This document shows, piece after piece, positions 140 through 29,873 of a stretch of 50,756 nucleotides of DNA. Below the pieces are notes generated by a model. The model had not been told where the DNA came from. It saw only the letters and a list, made by a program, of their open reading frames with translations, and ran no database searches. The stretch's first letter is position 1; each line of letters opens with the position of its first letter. The translations under genes and the position numbers were made by a program. The DNA comes from Fistulifera solaris (Eukaryota): contig AP026128.1 of the NCBI GenBank assembly GCA_030295235.1, positions 1,364,001 through 1,414,756 of the forward strand, given 5' to 3'.

Positions 140-833
140 TTACCATGCTCGCTGACCTTGAGACGCCGCTACGTAAACTGGCTCGGGCATAGGAACTCCC
201 TGCGGTTCCGAACCTTTCGTTTGCGATTGAGGGCCTTTGTAGGGCAGGAAGTTGGGACCTTTTAACTTGTTTTCACTCTCTTGTTTCGACGAAGCCGAAA
301 GAGCATCCAAGTAACTCAGATACATGGCAGCTGCTTCCGCCTTTGACTCGATTGGCTCTCCCCTGCGCAGGAGGCAAGCTAGCAAAGATTTCTTGTTTAC
401 GGCGTTCCGCCATCGAGGGAGTCCCGATGAGCCAGTCATCTCCTCTCTTGTGAATGACAGGTGCATACGTTCCGATTTGAACCGTCTCCAAAACGTCGGC
501 AGGTAGCAACCACGTTGGAGGTTTGTAAGGGGAATCAGCCATAGCCAAAAGTCGCAACATGTTGGTAACGGCGATAGAAGGATAAATTCGAGGAGGGCCG
601 TCGTGCGTTCGTCGTCCATCTTTATCGGATCGGCCGATTTTGTGAGAGGTAATAACATCGGCGGGATAGAAAGAAGGATTCTTGGAAGATCTCTCATAGT
701 CGAAATTGTCTCCTACTTTAAGAAATTCATGTAGCGCGAACGATTTCTGCGACGATCTGATTTCCTGATTCATAAAGGCAGCAACGCTGCTAAAAGACGA
801 AACGGCGAAAGCGGTGAAAAGAAGTCGGAACAT
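140..833 (-). CDS. Motif-family protein 1: putative plastid-targeted orphan, one apparent frameshift near 360
   Basis: N-terminus MFRLLFTAFAVSSFSSVAA|FM is a signal peptide followed by F. It contains FYPADVITSHKI and LLPADVLETVQI. ORF 273..833 joins the 140..697 frame at a G-run near 360, giving the C-terminus YLSYLDALS...KGPNFLPYKGPQ, which matches the gene at 46886-48120. Confidence 0.75.
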
Positions 834-1442
834 CTTGATGATTTTCTTGATAATAACCTCGATCGATTCTTGCTGACAAGTGTTGTGAATAGCTTAATTG
901 AAGCTTGATTGCACACGCAAGAGTCTTCAACTTGTTATTGAAATAACAAAACAGGTGAACCTTTGAAAGATCTTGTGCTTGTTGGCTGCTGTCGACTGTC
1001 GATCGAAGTGCGCTTTCGTGATGCTTGCGTGATGGGTGGCCGGGTTCGCTTGCTGGATCCAAAACCGTTGCGGAGTTTCATTTTATTCAGAAATCGAAGC
1101 AGATGTTGCTAGGAACGAAACGTGTTCCGTCTACTCATTTTGAGTGAGGTTAGTTGCACCGGTACTGCAAGACGTAATTTACTTAACGGACTTAAGTCGG
1201 TCGCTGAAAACGACTTGATTCAAATGTGTGACGTGTGACGACGTGTGACACGCCACAGGGAATAAGGAATCATCATCCGTGAGCAACTTCAAAAACTCCG
1301 GATCCTACAAGCTAAGGTGCGTTCTATATTCCTTTAAAAACTTGTTTCATTCTACTGCAGTTTACGCAACAATCAACGTATAAAAAGTAGCCTAGATATG
1401 TAATTTAAATGCTCGACCATTTAACCAACTCATGGTAAAAGC

Positions 1443-3621
1443 TCATTGCCGATCCTGCAACAGTAGTTCCTTCAGAGTGAATAAGGCCATCTCTCGAACC
1501 TTTGTTGATGTTAGCTTGTCTTTTTCTGTTTCGTCCTCTTCATTGTCTGGTGTTTCGACTTTTAACAGAGCGATGTCTTGCGTCTCACTCGCACTCAGTT
1601 GTTCGTTTGTATCCAATGATTCGCTTTTATCCGTCGGTTCGCTGAGGCCGTTGCTCGAACTTTTAGCAACTTCGGCGACATTTTGAACGGAATCATCTTC
1701 TGTGACTCCAAAAGAATGTCCAAGAGTTTCTCTGTCGAAGGTGTGGCACTGTCACTCTTACCGTTGTGTAAACTTGTCACATCATCAACCGTGCGTTCCC
1801 CGTGATGACGATCCCCATTGACAAATGATGTTCCTTCTACCCCATTCAGCTTAGCAAGAACGGAAGAAGGATCGGCGAGATATTGACTGACCGTCTCGTC
1901 CGTCAACTGATCAGAACCATCGGGGCTCCCTGTAAACAAGTATTGCAAAAGTTCCTTAGTTGATGATTTGGCATTGATGGGTGCCGTGGATTCCATCGTT
2001 GTCTGATCTGAAACGCTGGGGAACTCTTGGGTGTCGGAAGAGATTTGGATGTCGTTCACATCGTCGGCGCCTGTTACTAAACTTGGTTGAGCAACATCAG
2101 AAGTGGAAGCGAGTTGGTCTTCCGGCTCGCCCGCATTATGATCTCCATTCAGGTGGACGCCTGATTCTAATTGTAGATGCTCCGCAATCGTTTCGACGTC
2201 AGCACTCGTTAACCCATTAGTGTGATCAGTTTCCGTTGAAATCGCTTCAGCTTTGTCATCAAACGCAGCCAGGTCGTGTTCTCCATTAACGCTGGTTGAT
2301 TCCATCGTTTCCTGTTCCGGTTCGTAACCTTCCACTACCGAAGGCTCAGAAAACGACGACTCCGTTGTTTTTAGATCCGCAATTTCCTCTACCTGATCTG
2401 CCTCTGTTATCGGTAAACTCGCCATTGACTCAGAGCTGACCTCATTTATTGCTGCATCTACCAACAAATCTTCCTCGTCCGTTACTGATGGAATTGCTTC
2501 GTTGTCCACGAATGTAGGGTTTTGTCCATCAAGCTGAGCTGCTTGAGCGTCATCAGAGCTGAGAGCGACATAGTCTTCAATTGTTTCCATTGTCGTTGGG
2601 TCGGTATTCAAGTTCATCTGCGCTGTCTCTAGATCAATAGACTCTACTCCTTCACCATTGACTGCCAAAGATGTCGAACGAAGACCTTGCACATCATTTT
2701 CATGCAATAAATTGTCGTCGCTCGACTCCATCAATGTGTTGTCCGAGATTGAAGACGATGATTCCTCCTCGTGGTGTGCCCCGTTGACACCATTGATAGA
2801 CGGTTCTTCTTTATCATCCTCTGTGACTTGCATTTCCGTGTTCTCCGTCAATGGCTTTCGAAATCCGTGACGATTGCGTGCCTCTTCTTGCTCATTCATG
2901 CGATCACGCCAGAACTGTACCTGAATGTCACCGACTACAGGTTGCTTCGAGAATGAGTTCCTTGTCGAAACCGTAGGGACAGGTACCGATTGTTGTTGTT
3001 TCGAGAGAGCATCCGTCGTCACAACGTCGCCGGCGTGTTCCTCAAGTGCAGCTTGGTCGCTTGCTACCGACTCGGAACTTGTTTCCGGTAACTCCTGAAT
3101 GTTTTCTTCGCTTATGTTTGCATGAAAAACAGAACTACTTGCTTGTTCCGTAGAAAACGCCGGTCGAAACCCTTTTTATTGCGCTCTTCTTCTTGCGCCG
3201 TCATGCGATCTCGCCAAAATAGAATGTTACGATCGTCTACCGAGGTAGCGGGCACAGAAGGACGCTGTGGAGCCGAAGGTCGTAGAGCACTCGGATGAGT
3301 CGTCGGGGCGGGAGGCCTGGAAACACTTGCCGCAGCTGAAATTAGAAACATGTCATCCTGATCGCTCGGCAAAGAAATTGCGGCAGTCGGTTCTTCAGGA
3401 GGTGTTGGGGGAACTGAAGACTGAAACGGCTGCACAATAAACGGCTGCGCAGTAGTAGGTTCCCAAGAAGGCTTCTTGAAAACATCTGCGGGCATGAGAT
3501 AATCTGGATCGTTTACAGCAGACGTTTTTACGGATCGAATTGACATTCGATGCGGACGAACAATCCAAGCATCTGTTGCAGTAAACACAAAGAATGAAAC
3601 TACTACAGATCGAATAATCAT
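1443..3621 (-). CDS. Motif-family protein 2: acidic low-complexity protein, apparent frameshifts near 3167 and 1712
   Basis: MIIRSVVVSFFVFTATDA|WIV, then YLMPADVF. Two copies of FWRDRMxxQEExRNxxGF, one in ORF 3112..3621 and one in 1595..3022. Restoring one base in each T-run gives a continuous reading GFRPAFSTEQ...ILFGVTEDD...LLQDRQ*, with the stop at 1443-1445. Confidence 0.75.
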
Positions 3622-3983
3622 GTTGACTTGATTTTTAGAGAATGAAAGGACTGAAATGGGATAAAACGACGTAATAAGTATCCAAGAGGAGAAACAAGAA
3701 GTCGCGTGCCCAAAGATTGCAATGCGTTCCTTTTTATTGTTGCAGAAAAAAGGTGCAGTTTTTGTTTTTGTTGGGGAATTTTCGGCTGTGGATTACGTTG
3801 AAGTGACGTCATGCTGCAAACGTCATCCACTCCCACGGATGACTTCAGATGAGGGACCCAGAGGACCGGAGCATCACGAACAGACTGCTAAGTCAGTTTC
3901 ATAGATTATGCCATGCTAAAACTCAACTACGTCAACCTAGCAATGTATTCTCACACTCATACGCACAAGCAAACAATATATAA

Positions 3984-4778
3984 CTACCTTACTTTCTTCC
4001 TTTTCGAGACGAGGGTGAATTGTTTTTCTTCCGACGGCTCGACTTGGCATTCTGCAGAGTCCTTGGTGTCCGTGGATTGCTTTATGGATGTGTCCTTGAT
4101 GTCGACAAGTTGCTTTTTAGATCTCCAGTGTGCATCCCTTCTTGCCGCTTCGTCCCATCGAAGCAATTCTTCTTTTGAAAAGCTTCTTTCTCTACCAGAC
4201 GCTCAAGTCTCTTTTGTTCAACAAGTCGCGCTGCTTCAGTCCATCGATCCATTTCGGCTTGTTGAAATGCAACTTGCTCGGGAGTCAATTCACGTGGCTC
4301 CGCTGTAGAAGTCGCTGCAGCTGCTGGTTGATAATTGACCGGGTAACTCACTGGAGGGGGAAATGGTTTGACGCCAACCACGAACGCCGACTTCGTCAGC
4401 CGGGTGTCCTCGTGTGACTGTTGATGCTGGTACTACTCGTGGCGTTGCAGGGACAGGTGGCGAAATAATCGCTTCTCGTTGCAGTGATGCAGAAGGGTCA
4501 ATGAGTTCTCCACGTGCCGTAAAAGGTTCTGTTGTCGACTGGTTGTTGTCCGACGAAGAAGAGCGACCAGCTGCTGTGGGATTGCTGTCATAATTTGAAT
4601 AAGTGATGCCGCTCACAGGTGCGCCTGTTCGACTAATAACATCGGCGGGCAGAAAGTGTGAATCAGAATGGAAGATACGAGTGTTCCGCCGATTCGTTGA
4701 TTGATTGGAGACAGTAATCCAGGCGCTTGTTGTTGACAGACAACAGATCGCAGCGAGTGATGCCGGTCGAATTTTCAT
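3984..4778 (-). CDS. Motif-family protein 3, two apparent frameshifts
   Basis: MKIRPASLAAICCLSTTSA|WIT, then HFLPADVIS. ORF fragments 4290..4784, 4082..4381 and 3984..4166 overlap and read on as a Pro-rich segment followed by two RWxEAA helices. Confidence 0.7.
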
Positions 4779-5930: not shown

Positions 5931-7091
5931 TTATTCCAACTTCTCACCATCGGAAGGAGCCTCGTCGCTCCACTCTAATCCGTTGAGATCAATGCCTTCG
6001 TCATCTGGCCGATGGACGAAACAGTCGTCTTTCTTCGCTCTCCGAAGTGCGTCGCGTTTCGCAGCTTCCTCCCACCGCGCAAGCTCGCCATCTATAAATC
6101 CTATTTTGTCTGACAACGATTCGTTTTCATCAACACCTTCGTTCTTCACCTCTGGTGCGCCGTCTCGTAGCGACGCATTCAGTTCACTGTCAATTTCAAT
6201 AACCTCATTCTCGATCGTTTCACCAGTAGGTTTCGCCGAGTCTTCGGGTGTAGTTGTCGAACTGCTTTCATTACTTGTGAAAAAAGTTTCTTGTTGCTGA
6301 AATAGTTCCTTTTTGGCTTGTTCGACTTGCAGATTCCTCTGCGACTTTTCTTCCGCGAACTCGGCAATATTACCGTGCAGAATATGTTGCCCCGCATCTA
6401 AAAATGACATCATCTGGTACTCTGGGTACGGAAGAGGAATGTCTGGTATCGTAGTTGTGCTTGTCGTCGATGTTGTCGGTAGAGAATCGACCTCGGGGAC
6501 CGGTGCATCTGGTTCTTTGGGGAGTGTCGGTGGTTGTAGTTGAGGTGTCAGAGACGGCGTAATTGCTTCTGGGGGCGAAGTTTTCGGTGGAAGGGATTCA
6601 CCGGATGAAATCGGATAGTATGGAATGCGAATTTTTGTGGAAACGTCGGGATGCATCACATTGGAATTAGAAGGCACTGGCGAAAATGATGACAACGCTG
6701 GCTTTGGAGCTAGATTGCTCGAGGGTGAAGACCATGAAGGGCGCCCCGGTGAAGGCGACGAAAGCGCTGACTTGCGAGATAGCATAGACCCTGGTTCATT
6801 GTAGTACTGATTCGTTGAAGATTGCTGAGACGACACAGAAGGCACTTTTTCTGGCTTGAGCGTCGATGACCAGGACGCCGGATAGTAGCCCGAACGATGC
6901 GTTCTAGAAAGGTTCTCGAGCCATTGCGGACTACCCAAGATTTCCGGCGCTAGATCTGAGTAAAGGTCATCTTGAGCTCCCGATGCACCGAATTGTCGTG
7001 CCGTTGACGAACGTCGAATATAAGAGCGTGTAACCCATGCTTCTGACACAGAAAGCAGGCATACAGAGACTGCAGCAGCTCTCAAAAACAT
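5931..7091 (-). CDS. Motif-family protein 4: Ser/Pro-rich then acidic, intact ORF
   Basis: Likely start at 7091, MFLRAAAVSVCLLSVSEA|WVT. Contains MHPDVSTKIRI and ELARWEEAAKRDALRRAKK. Confidence 0.8.
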   Translation of the reverse strand: MFLRAAAVSVCLLSVSEAWVTRSYIRRSSTARQFGASGAQDDLYSDLAPEILGSPQWLENLSRTHRSGYYPASWSSTLKPEKVPSVSSQQSSTNQYYNEPGSMLSRKSALSSPSPGRPSWSSPSSNLAPKPALSSFSPVPSNSNVMHPDVSTKIRIPYYPISSGESLPPKTSPPEAITPSLTPQLQPPTLPKEPDAPVPEVDSLPTTSTTSTTTIPDIPLPYPEYQMMSFLDAGQHILHGNIAEFAEEKSQRNLQVEQAKKELFQQQETFFTSNESSSTTTPEDSAKPTGETIENEVIEIDSELNASLRDGAPEVKNEGVDENESLSDKIGFIDGELARWEEAAKRDALRRAKKDDCFVHRPDDEGIDLNGLEWSDEAPSDGEKLE

Positions 7092-8585
7092 TGTTTTCCA
7101 GTTCTGAAATAATAGGAATGATTTCGTTCTCAAGCGAATCGTATTGTGAACAAAGTATCTTTCAATTTGTTGTGATTGAGGCGACAATATTTTAAAGATG
7201 AGAGCGTTCCGATTTCTTCTGGTTGTTGTTTAAGATACCGTTCTTTCGATGTTGCACGAGTTTTCTAATCGAAACAAGTCAGGCTGCGAGAGATAAAGCT
7301 CAACGAGTCAAGATCTTTGTCACAAATAATACGATACACTACTTTTGTTCTGAAATCAACAGAAGCAAAGAAAAAAGGAAACAGCCGCGGTTTTCCTTGC
7401 GTCCTTGAGCGCGCGCGCCGCGTACGCTCGTGACAGCTGTTGTGTTACGTCATTACCACGTCACATGCAACGGCTCCAGTAAGGACCAAAGAGAAGAGAG
7501 AGAGGGTGCGACTTGAACTTCACTGCCAAACCCCGAACATCATGCGAGCTATAAACCGAACTGTACATTCGACGATCGACACTTCTCGTTCTAGGTTAGA
7601 GCTCGGGTTGTGGGTAAAACTCCAGGTTGCTAAGGGCTGGTTACACGCATGGACGCCCTGTCGCGATAGCACCGTGAAAGTACACTTTGTGCTACACTAA
7701 GCGTCGGAACGAAAATTTCACCATGGCAAAATACCGCATAAATCCAGGCTAAACATGGTGGGGCACCGATCAATTAAATAAAGCTCGATTGATATTCTTT
7801 TACTTTTATTGTATAATTAAGGAGAGGCGGTTCCAAAGGATGTTTAATTTTCATCAGAGGCGATCGAATTGCGGAGAAAAGGCGTGATTTGATTCTGCCC
7901 GTGCTTTTTCACCATAGAAAATCAACTCGAAAGCGAGTATCTCAGCAACAGAAGCGTCAAAATTGTGGATATCGCACAATAAGCCTTCTATAGCTAATAG
8001 CTATTAGATGGCCCAATTCCCACAATTTTGCAGGTCCCTGAACGAAGTTACAGCCTCATGAATCCTATTTCGCCATGGTCGTCGTGTTTTTATCGCGGTG
8101 GAGGTTAATCAATCAACGATAATTCGACTATACGCGTATAATGTAGTTACGTATAAATTCGTACCATTTGAACGAGGGGACGGTCGAAAAAGTAACCAGC
8201 CCTTACGGCTGTGGAGCAAGGGACGGATACAAGTACTGTACTAGTAATACGAAAAGCCTAGAATTTGCTTGAGCTTGGAGAGTCGCTCTGAAAATAGCAT
8301 CAAGCAAGTTGAGATGGACCAAAGCGAATTTAGTTGGGCAAAACAAAAAAGATTTAGTAGTTTCTCGTAGAATTCTGTGCACGAAAAGTGAATAGATACC
8401 ATGCATTACCATTACACTGCTCAATGAATAACAAGAATAGTGATAATATAAATGCGTTTTCCCATTTGGAAGAACATTGTTGCTGTGCGTTTTTGGAATT
8501 GATGTCAATCAGTGTCTTCGCAAGTCGCAAGCAGCTTGTATAATATTATAGCCCCAACAAGTTGGTAACAGAACAAAACTTCGCC

Positions 8586-11165
8586 TTATTCGTTCTTGCT
8601 TTCCTTAGCTTTTTTCTTTGCCAATTCGGCCAGCCCGTTGCCATCGTCAACAATTTCTGCGTCAATAATTCCGTTAACTGACTTGCCCTGAAGTAACGCC
8701 TCTTTTTTCTTTTGATCTCCTCCAGCTTTGCTTTCTGTTTTTGAAGAGCTGCTTCGGCTTCTTTCTTTATTTCGGCTTCTTCGCGAGCTATTTCCGCCAA
8801 GATTGCGGCTTCTTTCTCAGCTGCTTCCTTCCTTATACGCGCTTCTGCTTGAAGTCTTGCCGCTTCTTTCAAAGCAGCATCAACCTTGTTTTCACTATCA
8901 TCTGTAACACCCTCCGCTGTTTCCTTCTTTACGGGTTCGTCTGTCTTTTTCTGACTTGCCTTTTCCGCCCACCGAGCTTGTTGTGCTAATCGCTCTTCTT
9001 CAGCTTTGCGCGCTTCTTCTGCCCACCGAGCTTGTTCCGCTTTACGAGCTTCTTCAGCTTTCTTTGATTCTTCCAACCATCGAGCCTGTTCTGCTTGTCG
9101 AGCCTCTTCGGCTTTACGAGATTCCTCCGCCCAACGAAGTTGCTCCGCTTGGCGGGCTTCTTCTGCTTTTCGGGCTTCTTCCAGCCAGCGCGCATGTTCT
9201 GCTTTGCGTGCTTCTTCCGCCCAACGAGCTTGTTCAGCTATTCGATTCTCCTCTGCTTTCCGAGCCTCTTGTTCCATCCGGGCTATTTCTGCAAGACGGG
9301 CTTCTTCTGCTTTTCGAGCCTGTTCGACAAGTCGCGCTTCTTCAGCTTTTCGTGCTTCCTCTACAAGTCGTGCTTGTTTCGCAGCTTCCCGAGCCTCTTC
9401 GGCGAGTCGGGTTTGCTCGGCCAAACGCGCTTCTTCCGCTAGGCGAGCTTCCTCTGCTAAACGGGCCTGTTCAAGTCTACGCGCTTCTTCAGCTTTTCTT
9501 GCCTCCTCCGCAAGGCGCATTTCCTCGGCGATACGAGCCGCCTCTGCTATACGAGCTTCCTCCGCCAAACGCGCCTGTTCAGCCAATCTTGCTTGCTCCG
9601 CCAAACGAGCTTCTTCTGCCTTACGTGCCTCTTCCGCCAAACGTGCTTCTTCTGCTTTACGCGCCTCTTCCGCTAAACGTGCTTCCTCTGCAAGTCGTGC
9701 TTGCTCCGCCAAACGAGCTTCTTCCGCTTTACGCGCCTCTTCCGCTAAACGAGCTTCCTCTGCAAGTCGTGCTTGCTCCGCCAAACGAGCTTCCTCTGCT
9801 TTACGTGCCTCTTCCGCCAAACGAGCTTCCTCCGCTTTACGCGCCTCTTCCGCCAAGCGAGCTTCTTCAGCTTTACGCGCTTCTTCCGCTAAACGAGCTT
9901 CTTCGGCAATTCGTGCTTCCTCTGCCTTTCGAGCCTCTTCTGCGAGACGTGCTTCTTCCAGACGAAGTGCCTCTTCTTCTTTCCGCGCTTTCTCCATGAG
10001 CTGCCTTGCCTCCTGTTCTGCTTTCTGGAGCTCCTCGTACTGCTTTTGCGCAAGTTTTGCAGTTTCTATTGCCTTTAGCGTAGCCTGGTGCGCCGCTTCA
10101 GCCGCTTCGGCTGCTTTCTTTGCGACTTCCGCCTCCTTTGTAGCTTTTGTACTAGCCAACTGTGCAGCCGCTGACATTTTTGAATGAATTGTGTCGGCAC
10201 CATTTATCGATCCCTTGATGATTTTGGAAGTAATGCGAATCTCGTCTTCGACATTCTTGCCAATGTAGTCATCGTACTGATCTGGACTAGCAGCGGGCCA
10301 TTTTCCGGTTCCCGTAGGCTTGGACGCAATCAAGGGCTTATTCTCCGGCATATCCGGTGCTCCCAAGGCCTCGCTACCCAGTTGTCGAACCCAAGTTTGA
10401 CGCGGAGCAGGTGGAGGCTGAACGCGAATTTTGTTCATGACATCTGGTTGAATGTCATCTGCAGGGGTCGCTGTGGAATAGGACCAGCTGGACGTCCACA
10501 CACTTTTCCCCATGTTTTTCCGAGTCTCCATGTATTGTTCTCTCGCAGCTTCGGCTGCTGCGTCACTGTCGAGTGCATCCGTGCCCAACTCGTTAACCCA
10601 GGTTTTCTTTCGAGGTTTCTCTTCGGCAATTCGAATACCTTTAGTGATATCAGTTCCAATCTCGTCATCGTTGTGGGACTTTTGTATGCCATGAGCTCGA
10701 CCAAACAGTCTTTGGCTCTGTTTTCGTTCGAATCACTCCTTGTTCGTCGACTTTATAAGATTGCGTCGGTGTCGCGGGCACAGGCTGATCAAATGTCCCT
10801 GGTGCTTGTTGAGTGATGCGTATTTTATTGAGGACTTCTGAGCTGAATTCATTATCAAAGGAGGAACTGGACGGCGTCGGTAGAGGATTGATAGGCGCCC
10901 CATTCTTTGGCTTTGAGTTTTCTTCTGTACTTGAATCAATTCGAATACTCCTAAGATTCTCTTTACTGATGTAATCTTTATCATTTGAAGAGGCTGACCA
11001 CGATGCTCTCGGCGATTCCTGATGCAAAAGCGCACGCGTTAAATGTTTTGTATTCGTCGAACGATGCAGCGAAGCAGGAACAAAAGCAGCTGCTCCTGGG
11101 AAAGCTTGACTGGAAGCGAACAGCGCAGCAACTACAGCAGCCGAGTATTTAAATGAAAGACCCAT
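8586..11165 (-). CDS. Motif-family protein 5 with a long (EEARKA/EEARLA)n charged helix, apparent frameshifts near 10685 and 8705
   Basis: MGLSFKYSAAVVAALFASSQA|FP. Repeated VW[ST]SSW, EVLNKIRI / DITKGIRI / PDVMNKIRV and TWVxxLGx[DE]AL. About 330 aa of 6-residue E/A/R/K repeats. An alternative frame at an A-run gives the C-terminus EKEALLQGKSVNG...KESKNE* ending at 8586. Confidence 0.8.
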
Positions 11166-11757
11166 ATTGTACTAGTTACTCTTTCTCTGGTATTTTGATG
11201 TGATGAAGCTGAAAGAGAACAGCAGCGTCAATGCAAATTATCGTGAAAGTAGTTTTTATTTACTTCAAAACGGAACATCAACAACGTTCGGTGGTGGTGA
11301 TGTTCGGTTGTCGCGGCGAGAAATTTGAAGCGTAAAGCGAAGACAACCTTTACGCTGCGACATATAATTTCGCTAATTTCTACTAAACGGTTTGATTACT
11401 TAGGATCTTTTCGTCTATCTATCCATGTGTTATGCGAAAATGTGACCGTACATATCTGTACCCTACTATAGAAGTGCATACAAGTTACGGAGTACTTACT
11501 TTCTGAGGAAGAGTAATTATGACGTACGTCACTTCTTACTTAGCGACGACTCGTGACTTATTTCGTGACATCGAGATTAGTGACTGACTGCGGTCCGTCT
11601 GTCAGACGTTGTATGGGGCATTTTTCGTTTTTGCTATAATTATTGCGACGATAAAAAATAAATCCGCTCCTCATTATATACAATTTAACCATCATTATTC
11701 GTAGTTTTTCCTTTTTGTTTCTTGCGAATTGCCTTTCTGTTACTTAGATACAATCAC

Positions 11758-13231
11758 ATGAGTGAAGTTGGGATGGTGAAGCGCCCATTGGAATCGGATG
11801 ATATGGTAAGAAATAAAAGATGAAGATCGTGTAGCAAACCTTGAAAAATGCGGCTTGACTTGCACTCAATTGCATGGATAATTTGCCTTTTTACCATCCT
11901 CACCTTCACTTTGCAAATATACACTACGTTAGGTCATAGACTCGTCAGATCAGCAACAACGCATTAGTTTAAACACTTTATTGTCCCGTCCTTCGGAATT
12001 CGGTAATGAAACGGGTCCTCTCGCGTGCGGTGAATTTGATCCTTCGACTCCTCCGCAATCGAAAAAGGTTCTAGTAGTCGGAGCAGGAGGTCTCGGTTGT
12101 GAGATACTCAAAGATTTGGCTCTCAGCAGCATTCCCTTGAATGTGCACGTCATTGATTTGGATACGATTGATGTGACAAATTTGAATCGACAATTTTTAT
12201 TTCGTCAAAAAGACGTTGGAAAAAGTAAAGCAGAAACCGCAGCCGCTTTCATTCGACAACGTTGTCCGTGGATTCAAGTTACACCGCATGTTGGGAATAT
12301 TCAGGACAAAAACTTGGATTTCTATCGGCAGTTTGATGCGGTTATTTCGGGTCTCGACAATATTGAAGCGCGACGCTGGTTGAATGCGACGATAGTAGGA
12401 CTCGTTGATACCGATGACGACGGAGATTTGGATCCTTCCACCATTATTCCCATTGTGGATGGAGGTACGGAAGGATTTAGTGGCCAAGCGCGGTTGATTT
12501 TGCCCAAAATCACGTCGTGCTTCGAATGCACCATCGACAGCTTCCCGCCGCCACGTGCCTTTCCTCTTTGCACCATTGCGGAAACACCCCGACGGCCCGA
12601 ACATTGTATTGCATATGCGTATATTCTACAGTTTCCCCGTGAATTCCCCGACACGGTCCTGGACAAGGACAGTCCTGAACACCTGCAGTGGATTTATCAG
12701 CAAGCGGCAAAACGCGCCGAACAGTACGGTATCGCGGGTGTGACCTACATGATGACCATGGGTGTCGTCAAGAACATTATTCCTGCGGTTGCAAGTACCA
12801 ACGCGATCATTGCTGCAGCATGTGTCAATGAAGCCATCAAATATTTGACATTCTTTAGTCAAAACATGAACTCTTACATGATGTACATGGGAGCGCAAAG
12901 CATTCATTCGCACACTTTTGCCTACGAGCCATCGGAAGACTGTCCTGTCTGCTCCGCTTCGGTCCGCAAAATGACAGTTCCTGCTACCATCACATTGAAT
13001 CAATTCATTCAAACACATCTCAAAGACAGCTCGCTGCGCTTATCGTCTCCCAGCTTGGTGTCACCCAGTCAGACGTTGTACATGGTCAAACCAGCAGCAC
13101 TAGAGCTGGCCACCCGACCTAATCTCGACAAATTGCTGAGTACTCTCATCCAACCCGGCGAAGAAATCACAGTCACCGATCCGACGTTGCATGGCATTCA
13201 TGTTGGTTTGGCCATTACATTTGAAAACTAG
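11758..13231 (+). CDS. UBA3: NEDD8-activating enzyme E1 catalytic subunit; exons 11758-11805 and 11933-13231
   Basis: VLVVGAGGLGCE, DLDTIDVTNLNRQFLF, LDNIEARRWLN, DGGTEGF, catalytic PLCTIAETPR, VKNIIPAVASTNA. A GTAAG...TTAG intron at 11806-11932 joins in frame. Confidence 0.93.
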
Positions 13232-14647: not shown

Positions 14648-16078
14648 ATGTACTTCCGAAAGTTCGCTTTAGTGCTTCTAAGTGCATCAAGCGCCTCGGC
14701 TGCGTTCGTAGCGAGTCAACCCTCATTCGCCGATTCTTCACGTGCATCGACAGCACAAAACATGTATGCCGATGGCTTTCTTATGCCACAAGATGTCATC
14801 TCTTGGAGAGATCAACAAACAACGTCTTGTTATACCGCTCCTGTGTATGCCGATCCGAACAACTCGGTGCGTGAACCTCCCTCACCGTGGCCTGAATCGC
14901 GCGGCGATCGGCCAACACCTGCGTTCTTTGAAGAAACAAAGAAACAAGAGGACAAAAAGATTCACATGTTTGACTATTGGATGCAACCTTCGTCTTACAT
15001 GGAAGAGCTGAAGAAATCTGGCCGAAGATCTGAGTCACAATGGACTCCCGATGCCACGCCACCATTCTTTACAACCGGTTCTTTGAGCACGCCCGAGTCT
15101 CGATGGGCACGTGTCGATCCGGGCTTTACGCAATCGACTCCTTCTTTCAATCAGTACACATCTTCTTCTTATGCTACTGGGCGCTGGACTTCAATTTATG
15201 AATCCGATGCGATGAAATACCGTCAGATGCACAATTACATGGATGTCGAGGTTCAACAAGCACCTCAAGAGGCCGTTATAACCGCACCTGTCATTGAAGA
15301 GACACCCATCGCTTTGAATGAGCCGGATATTCGAGTGGAAGAACCAACGCTACAAGAAGTTTCTGCTTCAGTCAGCGAACCCGAACCGGTCTACCTTTCC
15401 GAACCAGTTATGGAGCAACCTATCGCACCGTGGAGCCAGCCGGAACCTGTAGTCGAGACGGCAAGTATTATTGAGGACATAATAATGGAAATGCCTAGTC
15501 CAGAGCCAGTGAGTACGATTTCGAAAGATCTTGCTGAAAAGATTTCCGCGTACGAGAAAAAGATCGAAGAAATGCGAGAAGTCGAAGCTGAATTCGTCGA
15601 TATTTTGAACCAGTCACGCAGTCGCTACGTCAACGACTTGAATGACATCCTGACAGTCGAATCAAGTTCGGATTATGTCGAAGAAGAAGAGTTCACCAGT
15701 GAGACCCAAAAGGAAGACGCACAACTATCTAGCAGCTTTGAAGAGCATCCTGGTGCGGAGACTTCCGTTGAATCGGCAGCAGCAACAACCACTGCCAGCT
15801 ACACCAATACCATCGATGTATTGGAAGAAGAGCTAGGCGAGGAGATCATGAGTACAATTCGTCGCGAATCTCATGTTAACACACCAGATGCTTACTTGAG
15901 CGCGGGTTCGAGTATGTACCAAAGCAGCTATTACGGTAGCCCAGGCCCGCAATATTCAACTGCAGGACGTTCTGGCCCCAACGTTTACCATAATTCCTAC
16001 CAAAACGCGGCACCCCATTACTCGAACGTGTACGATCGCCCTCTGAGCGAACGAAATCACTGGGACCGTATCTTTTAG
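14648..16078 (+). CDS. Motif-family protein 6: putative plastid-targeted disordered protein, intact ORF
   Basis: MYFRKFALVLLSASSASAA|FVA is a classic ASAF-like site. Contains GFLMPQDVIS, a Glu/Pro-rich middle, SRYVNDLNDILTVES and a Tyr-rich C-terminus. Confidence 0.85.
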   Translation: MYFRKFALVLLSASSASAAFVASQPSFADSSRASTAQNMYADGFLMPQDVISWRDQQTTSCYTAPVYADPNNSVREPPSPWPESRGDRPTPAFFEETKKQEDKKIHMFDYWMQPSSYMEELKKSGRRSESQWTPDATPPFFTTGSLSTPESRWARVDPGFTQSTPSFNQYTSSSYATGRWTSIYESDAMKYRQMHNYMDVEVQQAPQEAVITAPVIEETPIALNEPDIRVEEPTLQEVSASVSEPEPVYLSEPVMEQPIAPWSQPEPVVETASIIEDIIMEMPSPEPVSTISKDLAEKISAYEKKIEEMREVEAEFVDILNQSRSRYVNDLNDILTVESSSDYVEEEEFTSETQKEDAQLSSSFEEHPGAETSVESAAATTTASYTNTIDVLEEELGEEIMSTIRRESHVNTPDAYLSAGSSMYQSSYYGSPGPQYSTAGRSGPNVYHNSYQNAAPHYSNVYDRPLSERNHWDRIF

Positions 16079-16308: not shown

Positions 16309-16397
16309 TAATACTATAAAGGACAAGTTTCAAAAAAAAAAAAAAAAAAATAATAACTATAAAGGACAAGTTTCAAAAAAAAAAAAAAAAAATAATA
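16309..16397 (+). repeat. Tandem duplicate of a ~22-nt unit plus a 17-19 nt A-tract
   Basis: TAAT(A)ACTATAAAGGACAAGTTTC followed by an A-run occurs twice in tandem. Confidence 0.85.
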
Positions 16398-16579
16398 AGT
16401 AAGCCGTACGGAAGACAAAGGTTCGCGAAATGGTTTGACGTCAAAGTATCATAATGTGCAACGCAAACGCTGTTTATCTGATAAGACAAATGCATCACAA
16501 CAAAGATAAACAGAGCTCAAGAATTTGGGCGAACGAACGCATCGTAGGTAACATTGCGGCGCTCAAAAGAATTTGGATT

Positions 16580-16600
16580 CATGACTGAAGTCCAGTCGTG
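16580..16600. promoter_or_regulatory. Spaced dyad CATGACTG-N5-CAGTCGTG (further copies at 16771-16791 and 22157-22177)
   Basis: Three near-identical imperfect inverted repeats with a fixed 5-nt spacer, all upstream of genes. Function is inferred only. Confidence 0.45.
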
Positions 16601-17002
16601 ACGAAATACGAAGTAAACTTTGGTCTAGACGGAGTAGTTAATACGTAGACGACGCTTCGCAGTTTTTCGACGTACAAATAATTAGGGCCGACAAAGTCTA
16701 GTCTTCAAAAAAGCAACAAAGGCAAATGAAGCTCAAGAAGAGTTAGACAAACGAACAAAGTGTGGGCAGCAATGACTGAATGTCAGTCGTGAATCATCGT
16801 TGACATTACACTTTGTATGAAAATATAGACGGCTTTCGGTAATATGTGTCTGACGGAAATGCTGTCTGACACAAAATTTTTACGCGGACTTGAATTTTAT
16901 CGGATATACATTGATGATGATGATGATGATGATGAGTCTCATTTTCCATCGTTCTAGCTTATTGTCATTCATCTTCACTTCTTTGACGATACTTAATGAA
17001 AG

Positions 17003-18613
17003 ATGCATGTTTGTTTACTAAGATTTGTGCCGGCGGTGCTGTTACTTCTTCCCTTTACGGCTTACGCTTGGATTTCACAAAGAACGACGCCACGACAACG
17101 CCTTCTCTTCAACGGATCAACAAAACAAAGATCAAGCAATCCTCGTCTTTCCGGCGAACTACTTCCTCAGGGAATTGTTGATTCATCAACTGTGTATCGG
17201 GGTGGCCTCATTGAAAAGCCGCAATGGAACGGTGCTCCTGCTGAAGGATTTCGCGAAGCTCAGTCGATCCAAAATATGTATTATGCTCTATCTACTTTTC
17301 CAGAAAAAGAGACAAAGGACGAACGCGATGAAATAGAGACCAACACACCTTCTTTGTTGGAAGAAAAGAATATTCTTGACGATGAAAACGAGGTTCCTTC
17401 GGAAGCCAGCGAGCTAGATCACACTGATACATTTACGGAGGAAACAATCGAAGCCGTTGTGAAAGATGACTCTTTTGCAACGAAAATAACTGACTTATTC
17501 GAAACAAATGATCAAATTCTGAGTGCCTCAGATGAACTTTTCGCCGAGGAAGACGGCAGCCAAGTTAGTGGAGAAACTACGACGGACGAAAGTGCGGAAG
17601 AGGATGAAATATTCTATGATTACTCTCTGGAAAATATGGAAGCCCCATTCGAAAGCACTGATGGTGACCCAATAGCTATAAACGACAGCCGAGATCTATA
17701 TGTTGCAAGAACGGAGGAAATGGATGAAACAGAGGATGATAGAGGGATTGACGAAAGTCTTTTATCGCCTGACGAAAGCGGAGCAATCGATACAGAATCA
17801 GAAGACGGCGGTCTGCAGCTCTTATCGTTACAATCGATTACTGACAACGAAGTTGCTGATGAGATACAGACAAGCATGGAAGCAGAAGAAGATACGATAA
17901 CATCGGCTGAAAGCGACTTGTTGACAGAAGCCGAAAATGTAGATGGGACATTCCGAGACGAATTAGTCGAGGAACTTGGAGCAACGCTGACGGAGGACGC
18001 AAAAGAGCATGAAATTGTTAACGGCTCACGTGACGCTATTGTAGAGAGCTCGATAAATGAATTGACACAGCCGGAGCTAAGTGCAGAACCGATGAATCTG
18101 GAAAATCAACAGCAACTCGGTGAAGAAACAACAATACTTAGTTTGAAAGCTGATGGTCATCATGAAAGCGATTTGACATCTAGCGAATTCTTCGGTGAAA
18201 AGCAACAAAGTGTCGAATCTCGCGCAATTAGTGGCGCGTCAACATTGCAGATTGTCGAAGCTTCTACGACCATGAATTCCATTGCACTGTCGAAGAGACC
18301 ACTGAAGAGAATACCACTGTTCCAAAAGATGAATATTGACGCTGCTAAAGAGTCAGCTTTTTTACGAGTCGTTCGGAGGTATACCGAGGCGGACAAGCGC
18401 CGACGAAAACTGCTTGAAGAGCGACGAATGGCTGAGTCTATCAACGGACTTGAAGATGTAGACGCATTGAATGACCTGTTTAAGAAACTGACTTCGGCGG
18501 GTATTATTCCGAGGGTAAAAATGTATGGGAAGCGTTTTACATTGGATGATGGGACCACGGCTATAGGGAAGAGACGCAAACTATGCATTGAACTAGAATG
18601 GGAAATGGAATGA
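17003..18613 (+). CDS. Motif-family protein 7: highly acidic putative plastid protein, intact ORF
   Basis: MHVCLLRFVPAVLLLLPFTAYA|WIS. Contains SGELLPQGIV...WNGAPAEGFREAQSIQNM and C-terminal AGIIPRVKMYGKRF, both matching the neighbouring gene. Confidence 0.85.
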   Translation: MHVCLLRFVPAVLLLLPFTAYAWISQRTTPRQRLLFNGSTKQRSSNPRLSGELLPQGIVDSSTVYRGGLIEKPQWNGAPAEGFREAQSIQNMYYALSTFPEKETKDERDEIETNTPSLLEEKNILDDENEVPSEASELDHTDTFTEETIEAVVKDDSFATKITDLFETNDQILSASDELFAEEDGSQVSGETTTDESAEEDEIFYDYSLENMEAPFESTDGDPIAINDSRDLYVARTEEMDETEDDRGIDESLLSPDESGAIDTESEDGGLQLLSLQSITDNEVADEIQTSMEAEEDTITSAESDLLTEAENVDGTFRDELVEELGATLTEDAKEHEIVNGSRDAIVESSINELTQPELSAEPMNLENQQQLGEETTILSLKADGHHESDLTSSEFFGEKQQSVESRAISGASTLQIVEASTTMNSIALSKRPLKRIPLFQKMNIDAAKESAFLRVVRRYTEADKRRRKLLEERRMAESINGLEDVDALNDLFKKLTSAGIIPRVKMYGKRFTLDDGTTAIGKRRKLCIELEWEME

Positions 18614-19113
18614 ACATGGACGCTTTTGCTTTAAATTACGCTTGTGTCTCTTGCTACTTATAGGTAAAGCTAAAGTAAGTATAGTAACCTTTAATTTGTT
18701 GCTGAGACCTAATTCAAACTAGACCGGCCGAAGAGATGATAATACTTTCATTATATTATAGTGTTGGGGAGCAGCCGTAGTTTTTAACGTCGCACCGTAA
18801 TAACCACATTGAAGTTCAAATCCGCTGTTGCACACGTCACTTGGGCTATAAAAATGTGTGTAGAGGACTGTCTTGCGACCGGTTCTTTTCCGTTGACAAC
18901 AAGATCTGGATTTTGATTGGATCGTGTCGTCGTCGAACGTTGCACGCACGGAGTGCCATTTTGAGGAGTGTTGACGACGTTTGCGACATCAACACAAAAA
19001 ATGCATCTTGAAAGATTTGGCGAGTGTTTATTGCTTCATTATTGCTTCGTTTTCATTGCTTTCTGCTGTATTTGAATAAAGCAATCTCTGTCCTCAAACT
19101 ATAGCCCTAAAAA

Positions 19114-21994
19114 ATGAGCGGAATCTTTTTCCTTGTTTTGTTAAGTTGCTTCGCAGAGACACAAGGCGCTTGGGTCAGCAACAGTCCCCTTGTGTTAACG
19201 ACAACTCAATCTGTACGATGCGCCTCTCAAGCATCAAGTTACAATGATCCTTTCGCTTTTTCGGGTCAGGTCTTACCTCAGGGTATTTTAGGAATGTTTC
19301 GTGAACCGTCAACGAACAAAATGCCGTGGAAAGGATCCGGTGCTGTAGGCTTTCAAGAACCAAACGCAATTCGAGAGATGTCTATTCTCGATAGAACCTC
19401 GCCAGCTCAAGCAAAGGCAGAGACTGAAAAGAGTCAACAATTCAAACTCTCTCAGGCATCGGAGCCTACCTCAAAGAGGAGCGAATTAGTCCCTTTCTTT
19501 CAGAGATCGGATCCTAATTTCATGTCACCGGATGTCATGGCATCTGTCAGGATCAACCAACAGCAGTATCAGCTTCCTCAATTAAAAAATACGGTGTCAA
19601 GCGATTCGGCGAGCCGAAAATTGCGTGATGCTGCCATTTTGCGATTCGAATCGAGTTCTTGGGCTGCGGCAAATCTCAAATCCGAAAAAGCATCCGCGGA
19701 TGTACTCACTCGAGTCAATATCGGTATTGGTGCTCCTATTGCGGGCAAGTCATCGGCCCGTGTCGAAAATGTTACCAAAGGAACACAAGAATGGACTACG
19801 GAAAAAACGATCAAGCCGTCCAAGGATTCTGCGGATGTGCTGGTCAAAGTGCAGATTCATGATGAGATTGTGAATGCACCCGCATCACAGCGTGTCCAGG
19901 CTACAATTGCTACAAAACCGGATCAACCCGATGTAATGGATAAGGTAAACATCAACGAAGGGAAAATAGCGAATAACTCGGGTGCTACGGCCAAACCAGC
20001 AAAGGCATCCGCCGATGTGCAAACGCCTGTCAAAATTCATGAGGATGTCAAGGTCGAGAAGGTTGCGGAGCCGACCAAGGAATCGACCAGTAGCCAGTCG
20101 AAGGGAGCTGCACCATCTCCAACAGTACAAATTAATGGTGACAAACAGGATGTCGTCAAACCGTTCAATAAGAGTAACTCTCAGCCACCCATCGAGCCTA
20201 TTCTCGTCGATAAGTTACCGGAAAGCAAATACAAAAACGACTTGGATGATATTATTACTGTGGATTCACAAGTGGACACTCCTCCTACGAACACCCCATC
20301 CACCACGCAGGAGGCAACAGCAAATAATTCATCGGATTTGAAACCACCGGCCGACAAGCAGGAACCTACCGGTCCCTCTGTGCCGGTTGCAAAAACATCA
20401 GCGGAGTCTAAAGAGTTACTGAGTTCCGTTCAAATCACTAAGGATGCCAACCCTGCTCAAATTGCGAAACCAGACAAAGATTCTGCCGATGTTCTTACGT
20501 CCGTCAAGATTCATGCAGAGACAACGCCGACTCCAGTGGCTAAGCCGACAAAGGAATCTGCCGATGTCTTGACGCCCGTCAAGATTCATGCCGAAGAAAA
20601 GTCACCTCCTTTGGCAACCCCTACGAAGGAGTCTGCCGACGTTCTTACACCCGTTAAGATTCACGCTGAAAAGAAGCCGGTACAGGTAGCAACACCGCTG
20701 AAAGACTCCGCTGATGTTCTAACTCCAGTGAAAATCCACTCAGACACGAAGCCGACTTCATCATTTGCCAAACCATCTAAAGAGTCTGCTGATGTTCTCA
20801 CGCCGGTCAAAATTCACGACGATAAGCCACCCGTACGAACCGTCACAGCGGTGAAAAAGTCTGCCGATGTTCAAACTTCGGTTAAGATTCATTCAGACAA
20901 AAGACCTTCTCAAACGGCCAAACCCAGCAAGGCCTCTGCTGATGTTCAAACGCCTGTCAAAATTCACGAAGATGTAAAGCCGGCCCCAAGAGGAACGCCA
21001 CTGAAGGACTCCGCCGATGTATTAACTCATGTTAAGATTCACGCAGAAGAAAAAACCTGTCCGAGCAGTTGCGCCGGTCAAAGATTCGGCCGATGTTCTC
21101 ACGCCAGTCAAAATTCATGCAGACGAAAGGCCTAAACAGACTCCAACACCTCTGAAAGATTCTGCTGATGTTCTCACGCCCGTCAAAATTCACGCAGATG
21201 AGAAACCTGTGTTGGCGGCTACCCCGGTAAAGAAGTTAGCCGATGTTCAAACGCCAGTGAAGATTCACGCAGAAGACAAGCCGAGAAAACCTGTTACACC
21301 ACTAAAAGACTCCGCCGACGTCCAAACGCCAGTTAAAATTCATGCTGAGGAGAAACCGAGACAGACTGTTACACCGCTGAAAGACTCCGCTGATGTTCTC
21401 ACACCTGTGAAAATCCATGCAGAGGAGAAACCGAGACAGACTCTTACACCGCTGAAAGACTCTGCGGACGTCCAAACGTCTGTCAAAATTCATGCAGCAG
21501 AGAAGCCAAGACAAGCTCCTACACCGTTGAAGGACTCTGCAGATGTTCTCACGCCGGTCAAAATTCATGCTGAGACGGTATCGAAACCACTTACTAGACC
21601 TTCCAAAGATTCGGCCAATGTTCAGACTCCAGTCAAAATACATAGTGAAGACCAGTCAGCGACAAAAGAAAGTCCGACTGATTCGCACATCACCAAGTCG
21701 GCTGTAAAGTCGAAAGCGAAAAACGTAAACGGCATCAAAGACACTGCTCCTGTCACAGCAACTACGCAAGCATCATCGAGCGAATCGGCAACAACGGATG
21801 TTACTGTCGGAGGCATTCAGAACGATTCCGTCAAAGATTTGTTTGCGAGTAGCGTGATTGCAGATGTTATAACGAATGTTAAAATGTACGGGGACCGGAT
21901 ACCAGCGGCAAGCGCGGCCGAGTCAAAGTCGCAGAGCGGTCTGAAATGGAAATCCGATTTTGATCCGAATCGATGGGCCCCGCTTAGCTATTAA
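19114..21994 (+). CDS. Motif-family protein 8: multivalent repeat protein with 16 tandem K[DE]SADV[LQ]TPVKIH units, one apparent frameshift near 21052
   Basis: MSGIFFLVLLSCFAETQGA|WVS. The ~26-27 aa repeats continue unchanged from ORF 19114..21135 into 21029..21994 across an A-run. Confidence 0.88.
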
Positions 21995-28448: not shown

Positions 28449-29548
<1,100 letters not shown>

Positions 29549-29862: not shown

Positions 29863-29873
29863 ATAGATTACAT

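Follow-up and report, generated by a model that had tools for sequence, protein, structure and literature searches.

Do neighbouring genes that encode low-complexity proteins with signal peptides belong to a single molecular system, and if so, in which compartment of the cell does it act? This question is raised by positions 140 to 21994 of a stretch of 50,756 nucleotides of the diatom Fistulifera solaris (contig AP026128.1; hereafter the window), for which an earlier note had proposed a cluster of plastid-targeted, disordered proteins that share a mosaic of short motifs. Here, we find that the cluster contains eight signal-peptide genes, which we call g01 and g03 to g09. Their products form a family that is restricted to one lineage and for which no fold is modelled. 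One short motif is spread over the family and is repeated 22 times in g09, where each copy is maintained by selection. As a whole, the locus has in our view an even chance of being a tandem, lineage-private family that would supply the plastid with a sticker-and-spacer scaffold and its clients.

Gene content of the cluster

The eight genes and the unrelated gene between them are given below as they stand after correction of frameshifts. Hyphens in the signal peptide junctions mark the presumed cleavage site.

g01, 140..833, minus strand: signal peptide VAA-F (273-833), main motif present twice, as FYPADVITSHKIG and LLPADVLETVQIG
g03, 1595..3621, minus strand: 675 residues, signal peptide TDA-W, YLMPADVF at residue 44
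g04, 4082..4778, minus strand: 231 residues, signal peptide TSA-W, FLPADVI at residue 44, C-terminal helix motif DRWTEAARLVEQ
g05, 5931..7091, minus strand: 386 residues, signal peptide SEA-W, one main motif HPDVSTKIRIP, LEW near the C-terminus
g06, 8586..11165, minus strand: 859 residues, signal peptide SQA-F, main-motif copies QPDVMNKIRVQ and SSEVLNKIRIT, weaker ..IRI. units
NEDD8-activating-enzyme-like gene, 11805..13231, plus strand: intron 11805-11932, exon 11933-13231, unrelated to the family
g07, 14648..16078, plus strand: 476 residues, signal peptide SAA-F, FLMPQDVI at residue 47, NDLNDILTV island, isoelectric point (pI) 4.4
g08, 17003..18613, plus strand: 536 residues, signal peptide AYA-W, LPQGI module as in g09, LEW at the end
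g09, 19114..21994, plus strand: 959 residues, signal peptide QGA-W, pI 8.98, 22 copies of the main motif

The family genes form two arms, five genes on the minus strand and three on the plus strand, with the NEDD8-activating-enzyme-like gene between them; the latter carries ThiF and E2_bind domains (Pfam E-values 1.4e-53 and 1.8e-20).

Several of these models are split in the deposited sequence, which the earlier note had suggested checking against reads. Three public sequencing runs over the region, X1, X2 and X3, were used, whose library types are unrecorded. The contigs of X1 cover 30 of 30 bins evenly at a depth of 14-48, and X1 thus behaves as genomic DNA. Compared with these DNA contigs, the window carries at least 12 indels of 1-2 bases between 1995 and 21994 (16 in all, 12 of them listed), and all 12 listed indels fall at homopolymer or GC-repeat runs. 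Errors of this type are probably present in the remainder of the window too. The F. solaris assembly was reportedly built from reads prone to homopolymer errors.

The indels were applied to the sequence by script, which fused the split open reading frames (ORFs) into g03, g06 and g09 and lengthened g04. In g03, a T inserted behind 3172 in X1 joins 3112-3621 and 1595-2899 into one protein of 675 residues. In the 4290-4778 gene, a 1-base correction at 4356 (X1 depth 23.9 of 36.3; also present in X3) gives the 231 residues of g04. A 1-base deletion at 10680, found in X1, X2 and X3, joins 10665-11165 and 8546-10531 into the 859 residues of g06, where a T insertion at 8709 is also present in X1 and X2. 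Finally, a 1-base deletion in an A run at 21050 joins 19114-21135 and 21029-21994 into the 959 residues of g09. Once the homopolymer errors are removed, all frames in this corrected stretch are open. With these corrections, 140-21994 resolves into eight signal-peptide genes and one NEDD8-E1-like gene. This corrects the earlier count of eight such genes among ten complete ones to eight plus the one ThiF/E2_bind gene.

X2 contigs cover 22 and X3 contigs 17 of the 30 bins. They are located on parts of g03, g04, g05, g06, g07 and g08, on the 3' end of g09 and across the g06 junction. No cover is present on 18670-20670, the 5' two-thirds of g09, and on several other bins, from which we draw no inference. 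These contigs show one GT..AG joint from 11804 to 11932, with 29 letters on its short side, directly before the ThiF/E2_bind open frame at 11933-13231. The behaviour of X2 and X3 is suggestive of RNA-derived contigs. Also suggestive of expression are two relatives, P0016 and P0013, which sit on contigs of 2,811 and 1,649 bases.

Between g05 and g06, the stretch 7331-7997 has a doubled X1 DNA depth (47.7 compared with about 20), and differences cluster at 7689-7739. The stretch probably represents either a repeat or homeologous sequence that has been collapsed.

Six of the eight proteins have a pI of 4.2-6.4. The first frame of g01 is basic (pI 9.2); a frame change lies somewhere within 273-697, and the second frame ends in ...MYLSYLD...QRAW. 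Two FWRDRM..QEE.RN units and an acidic tail (pI 4.2) are found in g03, and an acidic middle (pI 4.2) in g08. In g06, residues 360-826 form a stretch of 467 residues that consists of 27% A, 26% E, 13% R and 9% K, contains a single P and a single G, and may be a long single or coiled helix; the DNA of g06 has periods of 36/72/108 bp. The model of g05 contains predicted helices at 223-273 and 326-352, the second of which holds ARWEEAAKRDALRR, and orthologues of g05 at 89, 81 and 69% identity retain both the motif and the helices. Versions of g07 exist at 92-94% identity.

One short motif recurs across the family

The mosaic of motifs described earlier collapses largely into a single motif, [SP][AP]DV[LMQI]xx[VI][KRNQ][IM]. 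Each of g01, g05 and g06 has one or two copies of this main motif, g08 has a degenerate copy and g09 has 22 copies. The first half of the motif, P[AQ]DV[IF], is located directly behind the presumed transit peptide of g01, g03, g04 and g07. FYPADVI/LLPADVL and PDVxxx[IV]R[IV], which had been listed as separate motifs, overlap in g01 LLPADVLETVQIG. Likewise, VKMYG belongs to the C-terminal main-motif copy ADVITNVKMYG of g09, which reads ADVLSAVKLHG in a relative of 46% identity, and to the degenerate C-terminal copy AGIIPRVKMYG of g08.

The sharing of motifs exceeds chance. For six of seven motifs, none of 300 shuffles of the eight proteins reached the observed protein counts, which are three each for PADV[ILF], DV...[VI][KRNQ]I and RW.E[AE][AS], and two each for NDL.DI.TV, VKMYG and LPQGI. 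The 294 other reading frames of the window (29,518 residues) contain no match apart from one to RW.E. The excess is modest for exact 5-mers, 18 of which occur in two or more proteins compared with a shuffle mean of 9.2 and a maximum of 16 (0 of 200 shuffles reach 18). SYLD was also named as a shared motif, which we do not confirm: none of the eight core frames contains it, whereas 18 of 4,214 Phaeodactylum proteins do, and its occurrence is thus uninformative and at chance level.

To score the main motif, a short hidden Markov model (HMM) of the g09 repeat was tried and discarded. In hmmsearch, its best real match reached 1.7 bits and its best control match 4.5 bits. As the HMM did not separate family, control and shuffled sequences, a gapless position-specific scoring matrix (PSSM) was used instead, whose 23 distinct motif instances came exclusively from g09 and its two orthologues. 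Outside g09, this PSSM scores 18.2 and 14.3 for the two copies in g01, 14.7 and 8.8 in g06, 11.3 in g05 and 7.6 in g08. The best score among the 294 control frames is 8.0, and 800 shuffled proteins have a 99th percentile of 7.4 and a maximum of 15.1. The proteins g05 and g09 align over the motif only, which agrees with the earlier description of short motifs common to proteins that do not align end to end.

The earlier note had also asked whether the motifs are equally frequent in other plastid-targeted proteins. We scanned 4,214 Phaeodactylum proteins (the first 400 residues or fewer of each, 1,421,034 residues in total), which include 895 high-confidence and 713 low-confidence plastid predictions, nearly all of those made by ASAFind. 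The PSSM gave 44 matches at or above 8; no protein has two, and none resembles the family. The seven family proteins other than g09 have five such matches in 3,349 residues, so that the main motif is about 48 times rarer in Phaeodactylum. PADV[ILF], NDL.DI.TV and VKMYG were each found in none of these 4,214 proteins. When the same Phaeodactylum table (4.0 million characters) was searched as text, PADVI/L/F appeared three times, in each case in a protein without a signal peptide. The motifs are thus no general feature of plastid-targeted diatom proteins.

Some further elements are shared within the family. RW.E[AE][AS] lies on a predicted helix in g04, g05 and g06, with five matches in the A/E/R/K-rich stretch of g06. 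The LPQGI module is common to g08 and g09, and NDL.DI.TV to g07 and g09, where the g09 island reads NDLDDIITV. A further element, which the earlier note had not listed, is a tryptophan close to the C-terminus. It stands in N[HR]W 7-8 residues from the end of g03 (NHW, 8 residues), g07 (NHW, 7 residues) and g09 (NRW, 8 residues), and in LEW near the end of g05 and g08, and both forms are kept in distant relatives. In total, five of the eight proteins have a tryptophan within 15 residues of the C-terminus (binomial p 0.003, post hoc). Of the family's 47 tryptophans, 19 have R or K at their side.

The stickers of g09 are maintained by selection

The earlier note had described the entire set as sticker-and-spacer proteins. 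We find a true sticker-and-spacer layout in one member, g09, with each sticker under purifying selection. Among its 22 motif copies, 16 consecutive motif-to-motif spacings measure 25-26 residues; the DNA has a period of 75 bp, and the units are 73-77% alike. In the regular array of 15 units, K2, A5, D6, V7, T9, V11, K12, I13 and H14 are conserved in 100% of the units. At these same nine positions, 26-68 of the 105 unit pairs differ in synonymous codons, and at spacer positions 20-23 the residue differs in 83-91 of the 105 pairs. Invariant residues combined with synonymous codon change show that each g09 sticker is individually maintained by selection.

F. solaris is an allodiploid. The homeologue of g09 has 20 motif copies, a third version 20, and the relative of 46% identity, P0016, has 8. 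Between g09 and P0016, 41 of 55 motif columns are identical, compared with 165 of 315 other columns, and the first five motif spacings are conserved. Elsewhere in the cluster, homeologue identity is 89% for g05 and 92% for g07. The adjacent aldose 1-epimerase, a folded enzyme, reaches 89% over 235 residues. It is unusual for low-complexity proteins to equal a folded enzyme in this respect, which argues for function.

A complex prediction for three copies of a four-repeat piece of g09, made without controls, gave a score of 0.00 compared with a mark of 0.32.

Folds, homologues and descent

In agreement with the earlier note, no recognised domain is present. A Pfam search on 18 ORF pieces found no family except for compositional matches in the coiled-coil piece. 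The low-complexity character of the proteins is likewise borne out by four models, of g05, g07, g08 and part of g09, all of which lack a fold. AlphaFold2 (AF2) gave a mean predicted local distance difference test score (pLDDT) of 33.8 for residues 1-673 of g09 and of 44.1 for g05, with two helices at 70-84, both from shallow alignments of 3-4 rows. DSSP assigned no helix or strand to residues 440-673 of the g09 model, a weak result given the shallow alignment. The ESM Atlas models have a mean pLDDT of 0.41 for g07 and 0.37 for g08. For these two proteins, the Atlas returned no usable feature matches, and all structure rows had a template modelling (TM) score below 0.3.

The window proteins are identical to database entries, as determined by exact look-ups and searches. 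Full-length versions at 74-93% identity are the F. solaris hypothetical proteins FisN_23Lh010, 011, 013 and 017, whose genes occur in the same order as in the window. A third version is found at 79-93% identity, and a more distant one at 46% for g09 and 67-69% for g05. Beyond these, relatives are scarce. HMMER with residues 1-673 of g09 found two true relatives among 1.84 billion representatives, both Fistulifera-type. A word-based search with residues 40-215 of g09 gave four matches, all from the same family, and the corresponding searches with g07 and g05 gave Fistulifera-type versions only. No homologues were found in Phaeodactylum. The HMMER search also gave 13 weaker matches to the g09 array (E = 1.8e-10 to 9.6e-4). 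The one that was examined, P0019, was rejected as a relative: it is a C2H2 zinc-finger array, which points to mimicry of the repeat period. Metagenome scans gave 81 pattern stretches for g07 and 189 for the g09 alignment, none of which was confirmed by tblastn. Six identifiers of homeologous genes appeared in no paper searched, bioRxiv supplements being outside the scope, and literature searches returned no title or abstract start on this family.

Within the cluster, BLASTP aligns g08 with g09 in two colinear stretches (E = 3e-5 in the N-terminal and 1e-3 in the C-terminal part), which directly supports paralogy of this pair. Paralogy of g07 and g09 is more weakly supported, with a BLASTP E-value of 1e-3 and an hhalign E-value of 0.0023 over 55 columns (probability 12.6%). 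For g05 and g09, profile comparison aligned only 17 columns, the motif alone, at a probability of 0.9%. The earlier note considered the clustering of such genes unusual. We disagree, because tandem duplication followed by divergence gives just this arrangement, here at a locus 28-50 kb from the telomere.

Upstream of the family genes, 3,960 bp contain 12 TGACGT/ACGTCA sites (for example at 3804-3929, 7447-7458 and 11520-11526), compared with 26 sites in the remaining 46.8 kb. Six sites are present in the roughly 4.4 kb of ten further upstream regions, and the excess over ordinary promoters is thus only about two-fold, which we do not use as an indication of co-regulation. In diatoms, bZIP factors bind the TGACGT core.

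Presequences and the likely compartment

All ten signal peptide junctions quoted in the earlier note were found in the ORF translations or by a search for AEGW. In the cluster, the presumed cleavage sites are followed by F (g01, g06 and g07) or W (g03, g04, g05, g08 and g09) in eight of eight proteins. All eight retain this aromatic residue in spite of the divergence of their signal peptides. Signal peptides were recognised by proxy, as an N-terminal segment of 18-22 residues whose best 11-residue Kyte-Doolittle mean is 1.8-2.9, with a small residue at -1. The ASAFind rules ask that a transit peptide have F, W, Y or L at +1 (Gruber et al. 2015).

Transit peptides were scored over 20 residues with the published ASAFind matrix (Gruber et al. 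2015) and a cut-off of 2. The three F-type proteins exceed it clearly (g01 4.24, g06 4.24 and g07 4.91). As a reference, we used the experimentally localised Phaeodactylum proteins of the ASAFind paper (134 rows, leaving out two marked as not used), in which 'high confidence' calls comprise 44 plastid proteins and 1 non-plastid protein. With their scores, the F-type proteins have a high probability of being located in the plastid. The aromatic residue at +1, which the earlier note took as a signature of plastid import, is necessary but not sufficient, and the five W-type proteins reach only 1.40-1.83. In favour of the plastid, F or W at +1 is present in only 9 of 56 non-plastid reference proteins with a signal peptide. 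Six reference proteins have W at +1; three of these are plastid proteins, all scoring above 2. A search for the best ASAFind cleavage site without constraint was abandoned, as it jumps to any F and is meaningless without SignalP.

Each W-type member has a motif in common with an F-type member. It is mainly for this reason that we place the chance of a plastid location somewhat above even for the W-type proteins as well.

A scaffold and its clients?

How could such a family work? In the reading to which we give an even chance, eight diverged paralogues would have arisen as a tandem array, restricted to Fistulifera and its nearest relatives. The largely disordered proteins would enter the endoplasmic reticulum (ER) via bipartite presequences of the diatom type. 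Their sequences would have drifted apart while a few short linear motifs stayed. g09 would be the multivalent scaffold, and the mostly acidic others would be clients or adaptors that use the motif as a binding site and dock to the same putative partner as g09, most likely inside the plastid.

Several observations weigh against this proposal. The five W-type proteins all score below the ASAFind cut-off (g03 1.46, g04 1.42, g05 1.83, g08 1.40 and g09 1.80) and would fall into the 'low confidence' class, which in the reference set holds 7 plastid and 13 non-plastid proteins. The three W-type reference proteins with scores below 2 are periplastidal, extracellular and ER proteins. Scores over positions +2 to +20 are 0.99-1.68, between the medians of non-plastid (1.17) and plastid (2.15) proteins. 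An acid-free stretch behind the cleavage site, present in six of the eight cluster proteins, was dropped as support because it does not discriminate in the reference set, where 20 of 55 plastid and 15 of 56 non-plastid proteins have it. With regard to the motif, the regular expressions were drawn up after seeing the data, and g03, g04 and g07 contain only the half motif, with no PSSM match above 6. With regard to descent, profile comparison gives little support for global homology, and common ancestry of all eight genes is suggested by their position, orientation and shared N-terminal plan. Finally, the alignments behind the models of g09 and g05 are shallow.

In a different explanation, the proteins would act outside the stroma, in the secretory pathway: in the periplastidal compartment, the ER, at the cell surface, in mucilage or in a silica-associated matrix. 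Diatom proteins of such classes are also fast-evolving, clustered and disordered, and carry signal peptides. Biosilica and cell-surface proteins such as silaffins and cingulins combine a signal peptide, low complexity, repeats, rapid evolution and restriction to one lineage, all of which is found in the present family. The W at +1 in five of eight proteins, with transit scores comparable to those of periplastidal, ER or extracellular proteins, fits this explanation. So do the S/T/P/E-rich, acidic composition of six of the eight proteins, the lineage-private distribution and the position of the locus near a telomere, beside genes for proteases of the secreted type.

Against a secretory destination stand the canonical AxA-F junctions of three members, with transit scores of 4.2-4.9 above the ASAFind plastid cut-off, and the F or W kept at +1 in the whole family despite divergence of the signal peptides. 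By comparison, three ordinary signal-peptide proteins of the window (the subtilase, the trypsin-like protein and ORF 27131-28219) have A, T and A behind the likely cleavage site, as judged by eye. Silaffin-like features, such as K- and S-rich domains, KxxK clusters and an R.L propeptide site behind the signal peptide, are also lacking. No window of 100 residues in the eight proteins has at least 18 S together with at least 10 K, the best being 17 S and 11 K in g09. R.L behind the signal peptide (residues 19-70) is found in only two of the eight proteins, with no regular site, and the proteins have 0-2 cysteines. We regard a location outside the stroma as less likely than one in the plastid, but as a serious rival.

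Comparison with known pyrenoid linkers

A more specific version of the plastid scaffold-and-client reading takes the structure concerned to be the pyrenoid. In this case, g09 would act as a Rubisco linker or would tether the Rubisco matrix to the PyShell, and the other members would be pyrenoid proteins recruited by the same motif. We consider such a role improbable, for reasons given below.

The closest comparison is PYCO1 (Oh et al. 2023, PMC10288592), which serves Phaeodactylum tricornutum as its pyrenoid linker. According to that paper, PYCO1 has six repeats of about 80 residues, a pI of 10 and the stickers KWSPR and GTGYNP. Other work describes it as not widely conserved and as absent from centric diatoms. 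A 2026 review lists PYCO1 as the only diatom linker, and Thalassiosira is reported to have no known equivalent. If PYCO1 is not widely conserved, other diatoms may use other linkers. Both PYCO1 and g09 are nuclear-encoded, mostly disordered diatom proteins with basic tandem repeats (pI 10.0 and 9.0) in which short stickers alternate with low-complexity spacers. Both also have a non-canonical presequence. PYCO1 itself (entry Phatr2a_49957, supplementary table of PMC4329603), which experiments place in the pyrenoid, has H at +1 and a transit score of 1.0, and ASAFind puts it in the class 'not plastid, SignalP positive'. Presequence predictors can therefore miss disordered pyrenoid proteins, and weak scores do not exclude a protein from the pyrenoid.

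The differences from PYCO1 are substantial. The repeat unit of g09 is 25 residues long instead of about 80, and it carries 22 stickers, which is far from the 5-6 described for known linkers. The g09 sticker is aliphatic and charged and lacks tryptophan. Rubisco binding has been measured for PYCO1, whereas g09 is known here from its sequence. KWSP and GTGYNP were found in none of 17 ORF pieces, while the control, Phaeodactylum entry 49957, has 5 and 3 of them in its first 400 residues. Searches with g09 gave Fistulifera-type proteins only, and no direct pairwise comparison with PYCO1 was made.

A second comparison is the network of EPYC1 and other Chlamydomonas proteins with a shared Rubisco-binding motif, reportedly described by Meyer and colleagues in 2020. 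In this network, one disordered repeat protein carries many copies of the motif and otherwise unrelated proteins of the same compartment carry one or a few, and the same distribution is seen here for g09 compared with g01, g05, g06 and g08. However, the network belongs to the green lineage, with another form of Rubisco and a helical, tryptophan-containing motif. The Chlamydomonas-type regular expression [DN]W[RK]xx[LIVA] has no match in the eight proteins. The Chlamydomonas genes are not known to be clustered, whereas the genes here are neighbours and probably paralogues. A motif common to a repeat protein and to other proteins is a pattern described for Ulva as well as Chlamydomonas.

Linkers can also be recognised by general criteria. 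In FLIPPer (Barrett et al. 2024, PMC11570498), these are a largely disordered protein, repeats spaced 20-120 residues apart and repeated structured (helical) elements; a Ulva preprint restates them with at least three repeats and a pI above 8. Set against these published criteria, as distinct from pipeline output, g09 agrees in its disorder (pLDDT 33.8), its 25-26-residue spacing, its repeat number and its pI of 8.98. Its repeats are modelled without helix or strand, from a shallow alignment, and so differ from the repeating structured elements of a linker. The other seven proteins do not qualify: six have a pI of 4.2-6.4, and g01 (pI 9.2) has only two motif copies. Screens of the FLIPPer type yield 8-13 candidates per genome with one proved linker, which gives a pyrenoid role a low prior. 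The 19 R/K-flanked tryptophans and the C-terminal tryptophan of five proteins would suit such a role.

A bolder version of the plastid scaffold-and-client reading, which we regard as a long shot, is a plastid body that naviculoid diatoms of the Fistulifera type would assemble with a system unrelated to PYCO1. Here, the basic g09 would be the scaffold, and the 22 copies of its aliphatic sticker SADVLTPVKIH, probably strand-forming and spaced by 25 residues, would bind a periodic partner; the acidic g01, g05, g06 and g08 would be recruited through their one or two copies of the sticker. In its most interesting form, the body would be the pyrenoid matrix or its attachment to the PyShell or thylakoids, with all components encoded in one tandem cluster. 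If true, carbon fixation would be organised by a third sticker chemistry of independent origin, and a scaffold and clients visibly derived from one another by duplication would be seen for the first time.

That the shared motifs are mere relics of a shared ancestry in young duplicates that decay rapidly close to the end of a chromosome, with no common partner and little or no function, would suit the tandem arrangement, the homologues confined to very close relatives, the modest 5-mer excess (18 compared with 9.2) and the motifs confined to single pairs (LPQGI and VKMYG in g08/g09, NDL.DI.TV in g07/g09), but is quite doubtful in view of the invariant residues with synonymous variation over 15 repeat units, the motif islands and spacings kept at 46% identity, the homeologue identity equal to that of a folded enzyme and the open frames.

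Where does this leave the locus? PYCO1 is the one diatom pyrenoid linker known. The locus offers a compact candidate set of a 22-valent basic repeat protein with selected stickers, neighbours with the same sticker and three canonical plastid presequences. Even without a pyrenoid role, it would illustrate a route from one gene, via tandem duplication, to a sticker-and-spacer scaffold and its clients. Across the family, +1, a position critical for import, has also changed from F to W, which bears on the reliability of diatom targeting predictors, because ASAFind misses PYCO1 too. If the proteins are secreted, they would represent an ordinary lineage-private family of low-complexity proteins.

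Chromosomal context and neighbouring genes

The window is eukaryotic nuclear DNA of a diatom, with a G+C content of 41-50% and short introns. A telomere of 102 TTAGGG units occupies 50140-50756, up to the end of the window, which places the cluster 28-50 kb from the chromosome end. Further low-complexity genes at 39972-48124 are subtelomeric:

Distal gene or genes, 39972..46100, minus strand: overlapping frames 45029-46075, 44185-45054, 43344-44075, 41657-43441 and 39972-41807, signal peptide ...DAEG-W upstream
Second distal gene (g14), 46886..48124, plus strand: signal peptide INA-W, spread over three frames, low complexity

The earlier note had counted both loci among the genes that share the motifs. 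This is not the case. The distal ORFs contain neither the main motif nor any strong motif, all PSSM scores are at or below 6, and only a W-type signal is shared with the cluster. The AEG-W junction near 46000 on the minus strand is in a different frame from the ORF behind it (45029-45988), and the INA-W protein has a transit score of 1.14. The first locus has repeats of its own: ETWDPWKFDV..QTLGKS six times, FEPGSPPAPLLP and FGSFV.E.AK. In 41657-44075 on the minus strand, the six ETWDPWKFDV(M/L)SQTLGKS copies are about 55-75 residues apart and are accompanied by FEPGSPPAPLLP and DPTKPPTNFGSFVQEIAK. These repeats resemble tryptophan-containing stickers in S-rich spacers and bear no relation to the main motif.

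Between the cluster and the distal genes, 24137-36320 contains three serine peptidase genes of the secretory type: a subtilase (S8; 24137-25430, minus strand), a trypsin-like gene (32157-33839) and an S10 carboxypeptidase split over 34570-36320. The subtilase gene is flanked by two ORFs in opposite orientation without a Pfam family, 23298-23768 on the minus and 26317-26838 on the plus strand, which are similar to each other by eye and both read ...SDPQY..F.KF....FRVV..EY..L..G.YG.... The stretch 28765-30476 is poor in genes and holds a microsatellite, (AC)x106, as well as a 137-bp duplication without mismatches and a 52-bp array of 11.7 copies. At 36666-38512 on the plus strand, a cation-efflux (CDF) transporter has a canonical IDA-F junction and scores 4.83 with the ASAFind transit matrix. 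This transporter is likely a plastid membrane protein and provides an example of an F-type presequence from within the window.

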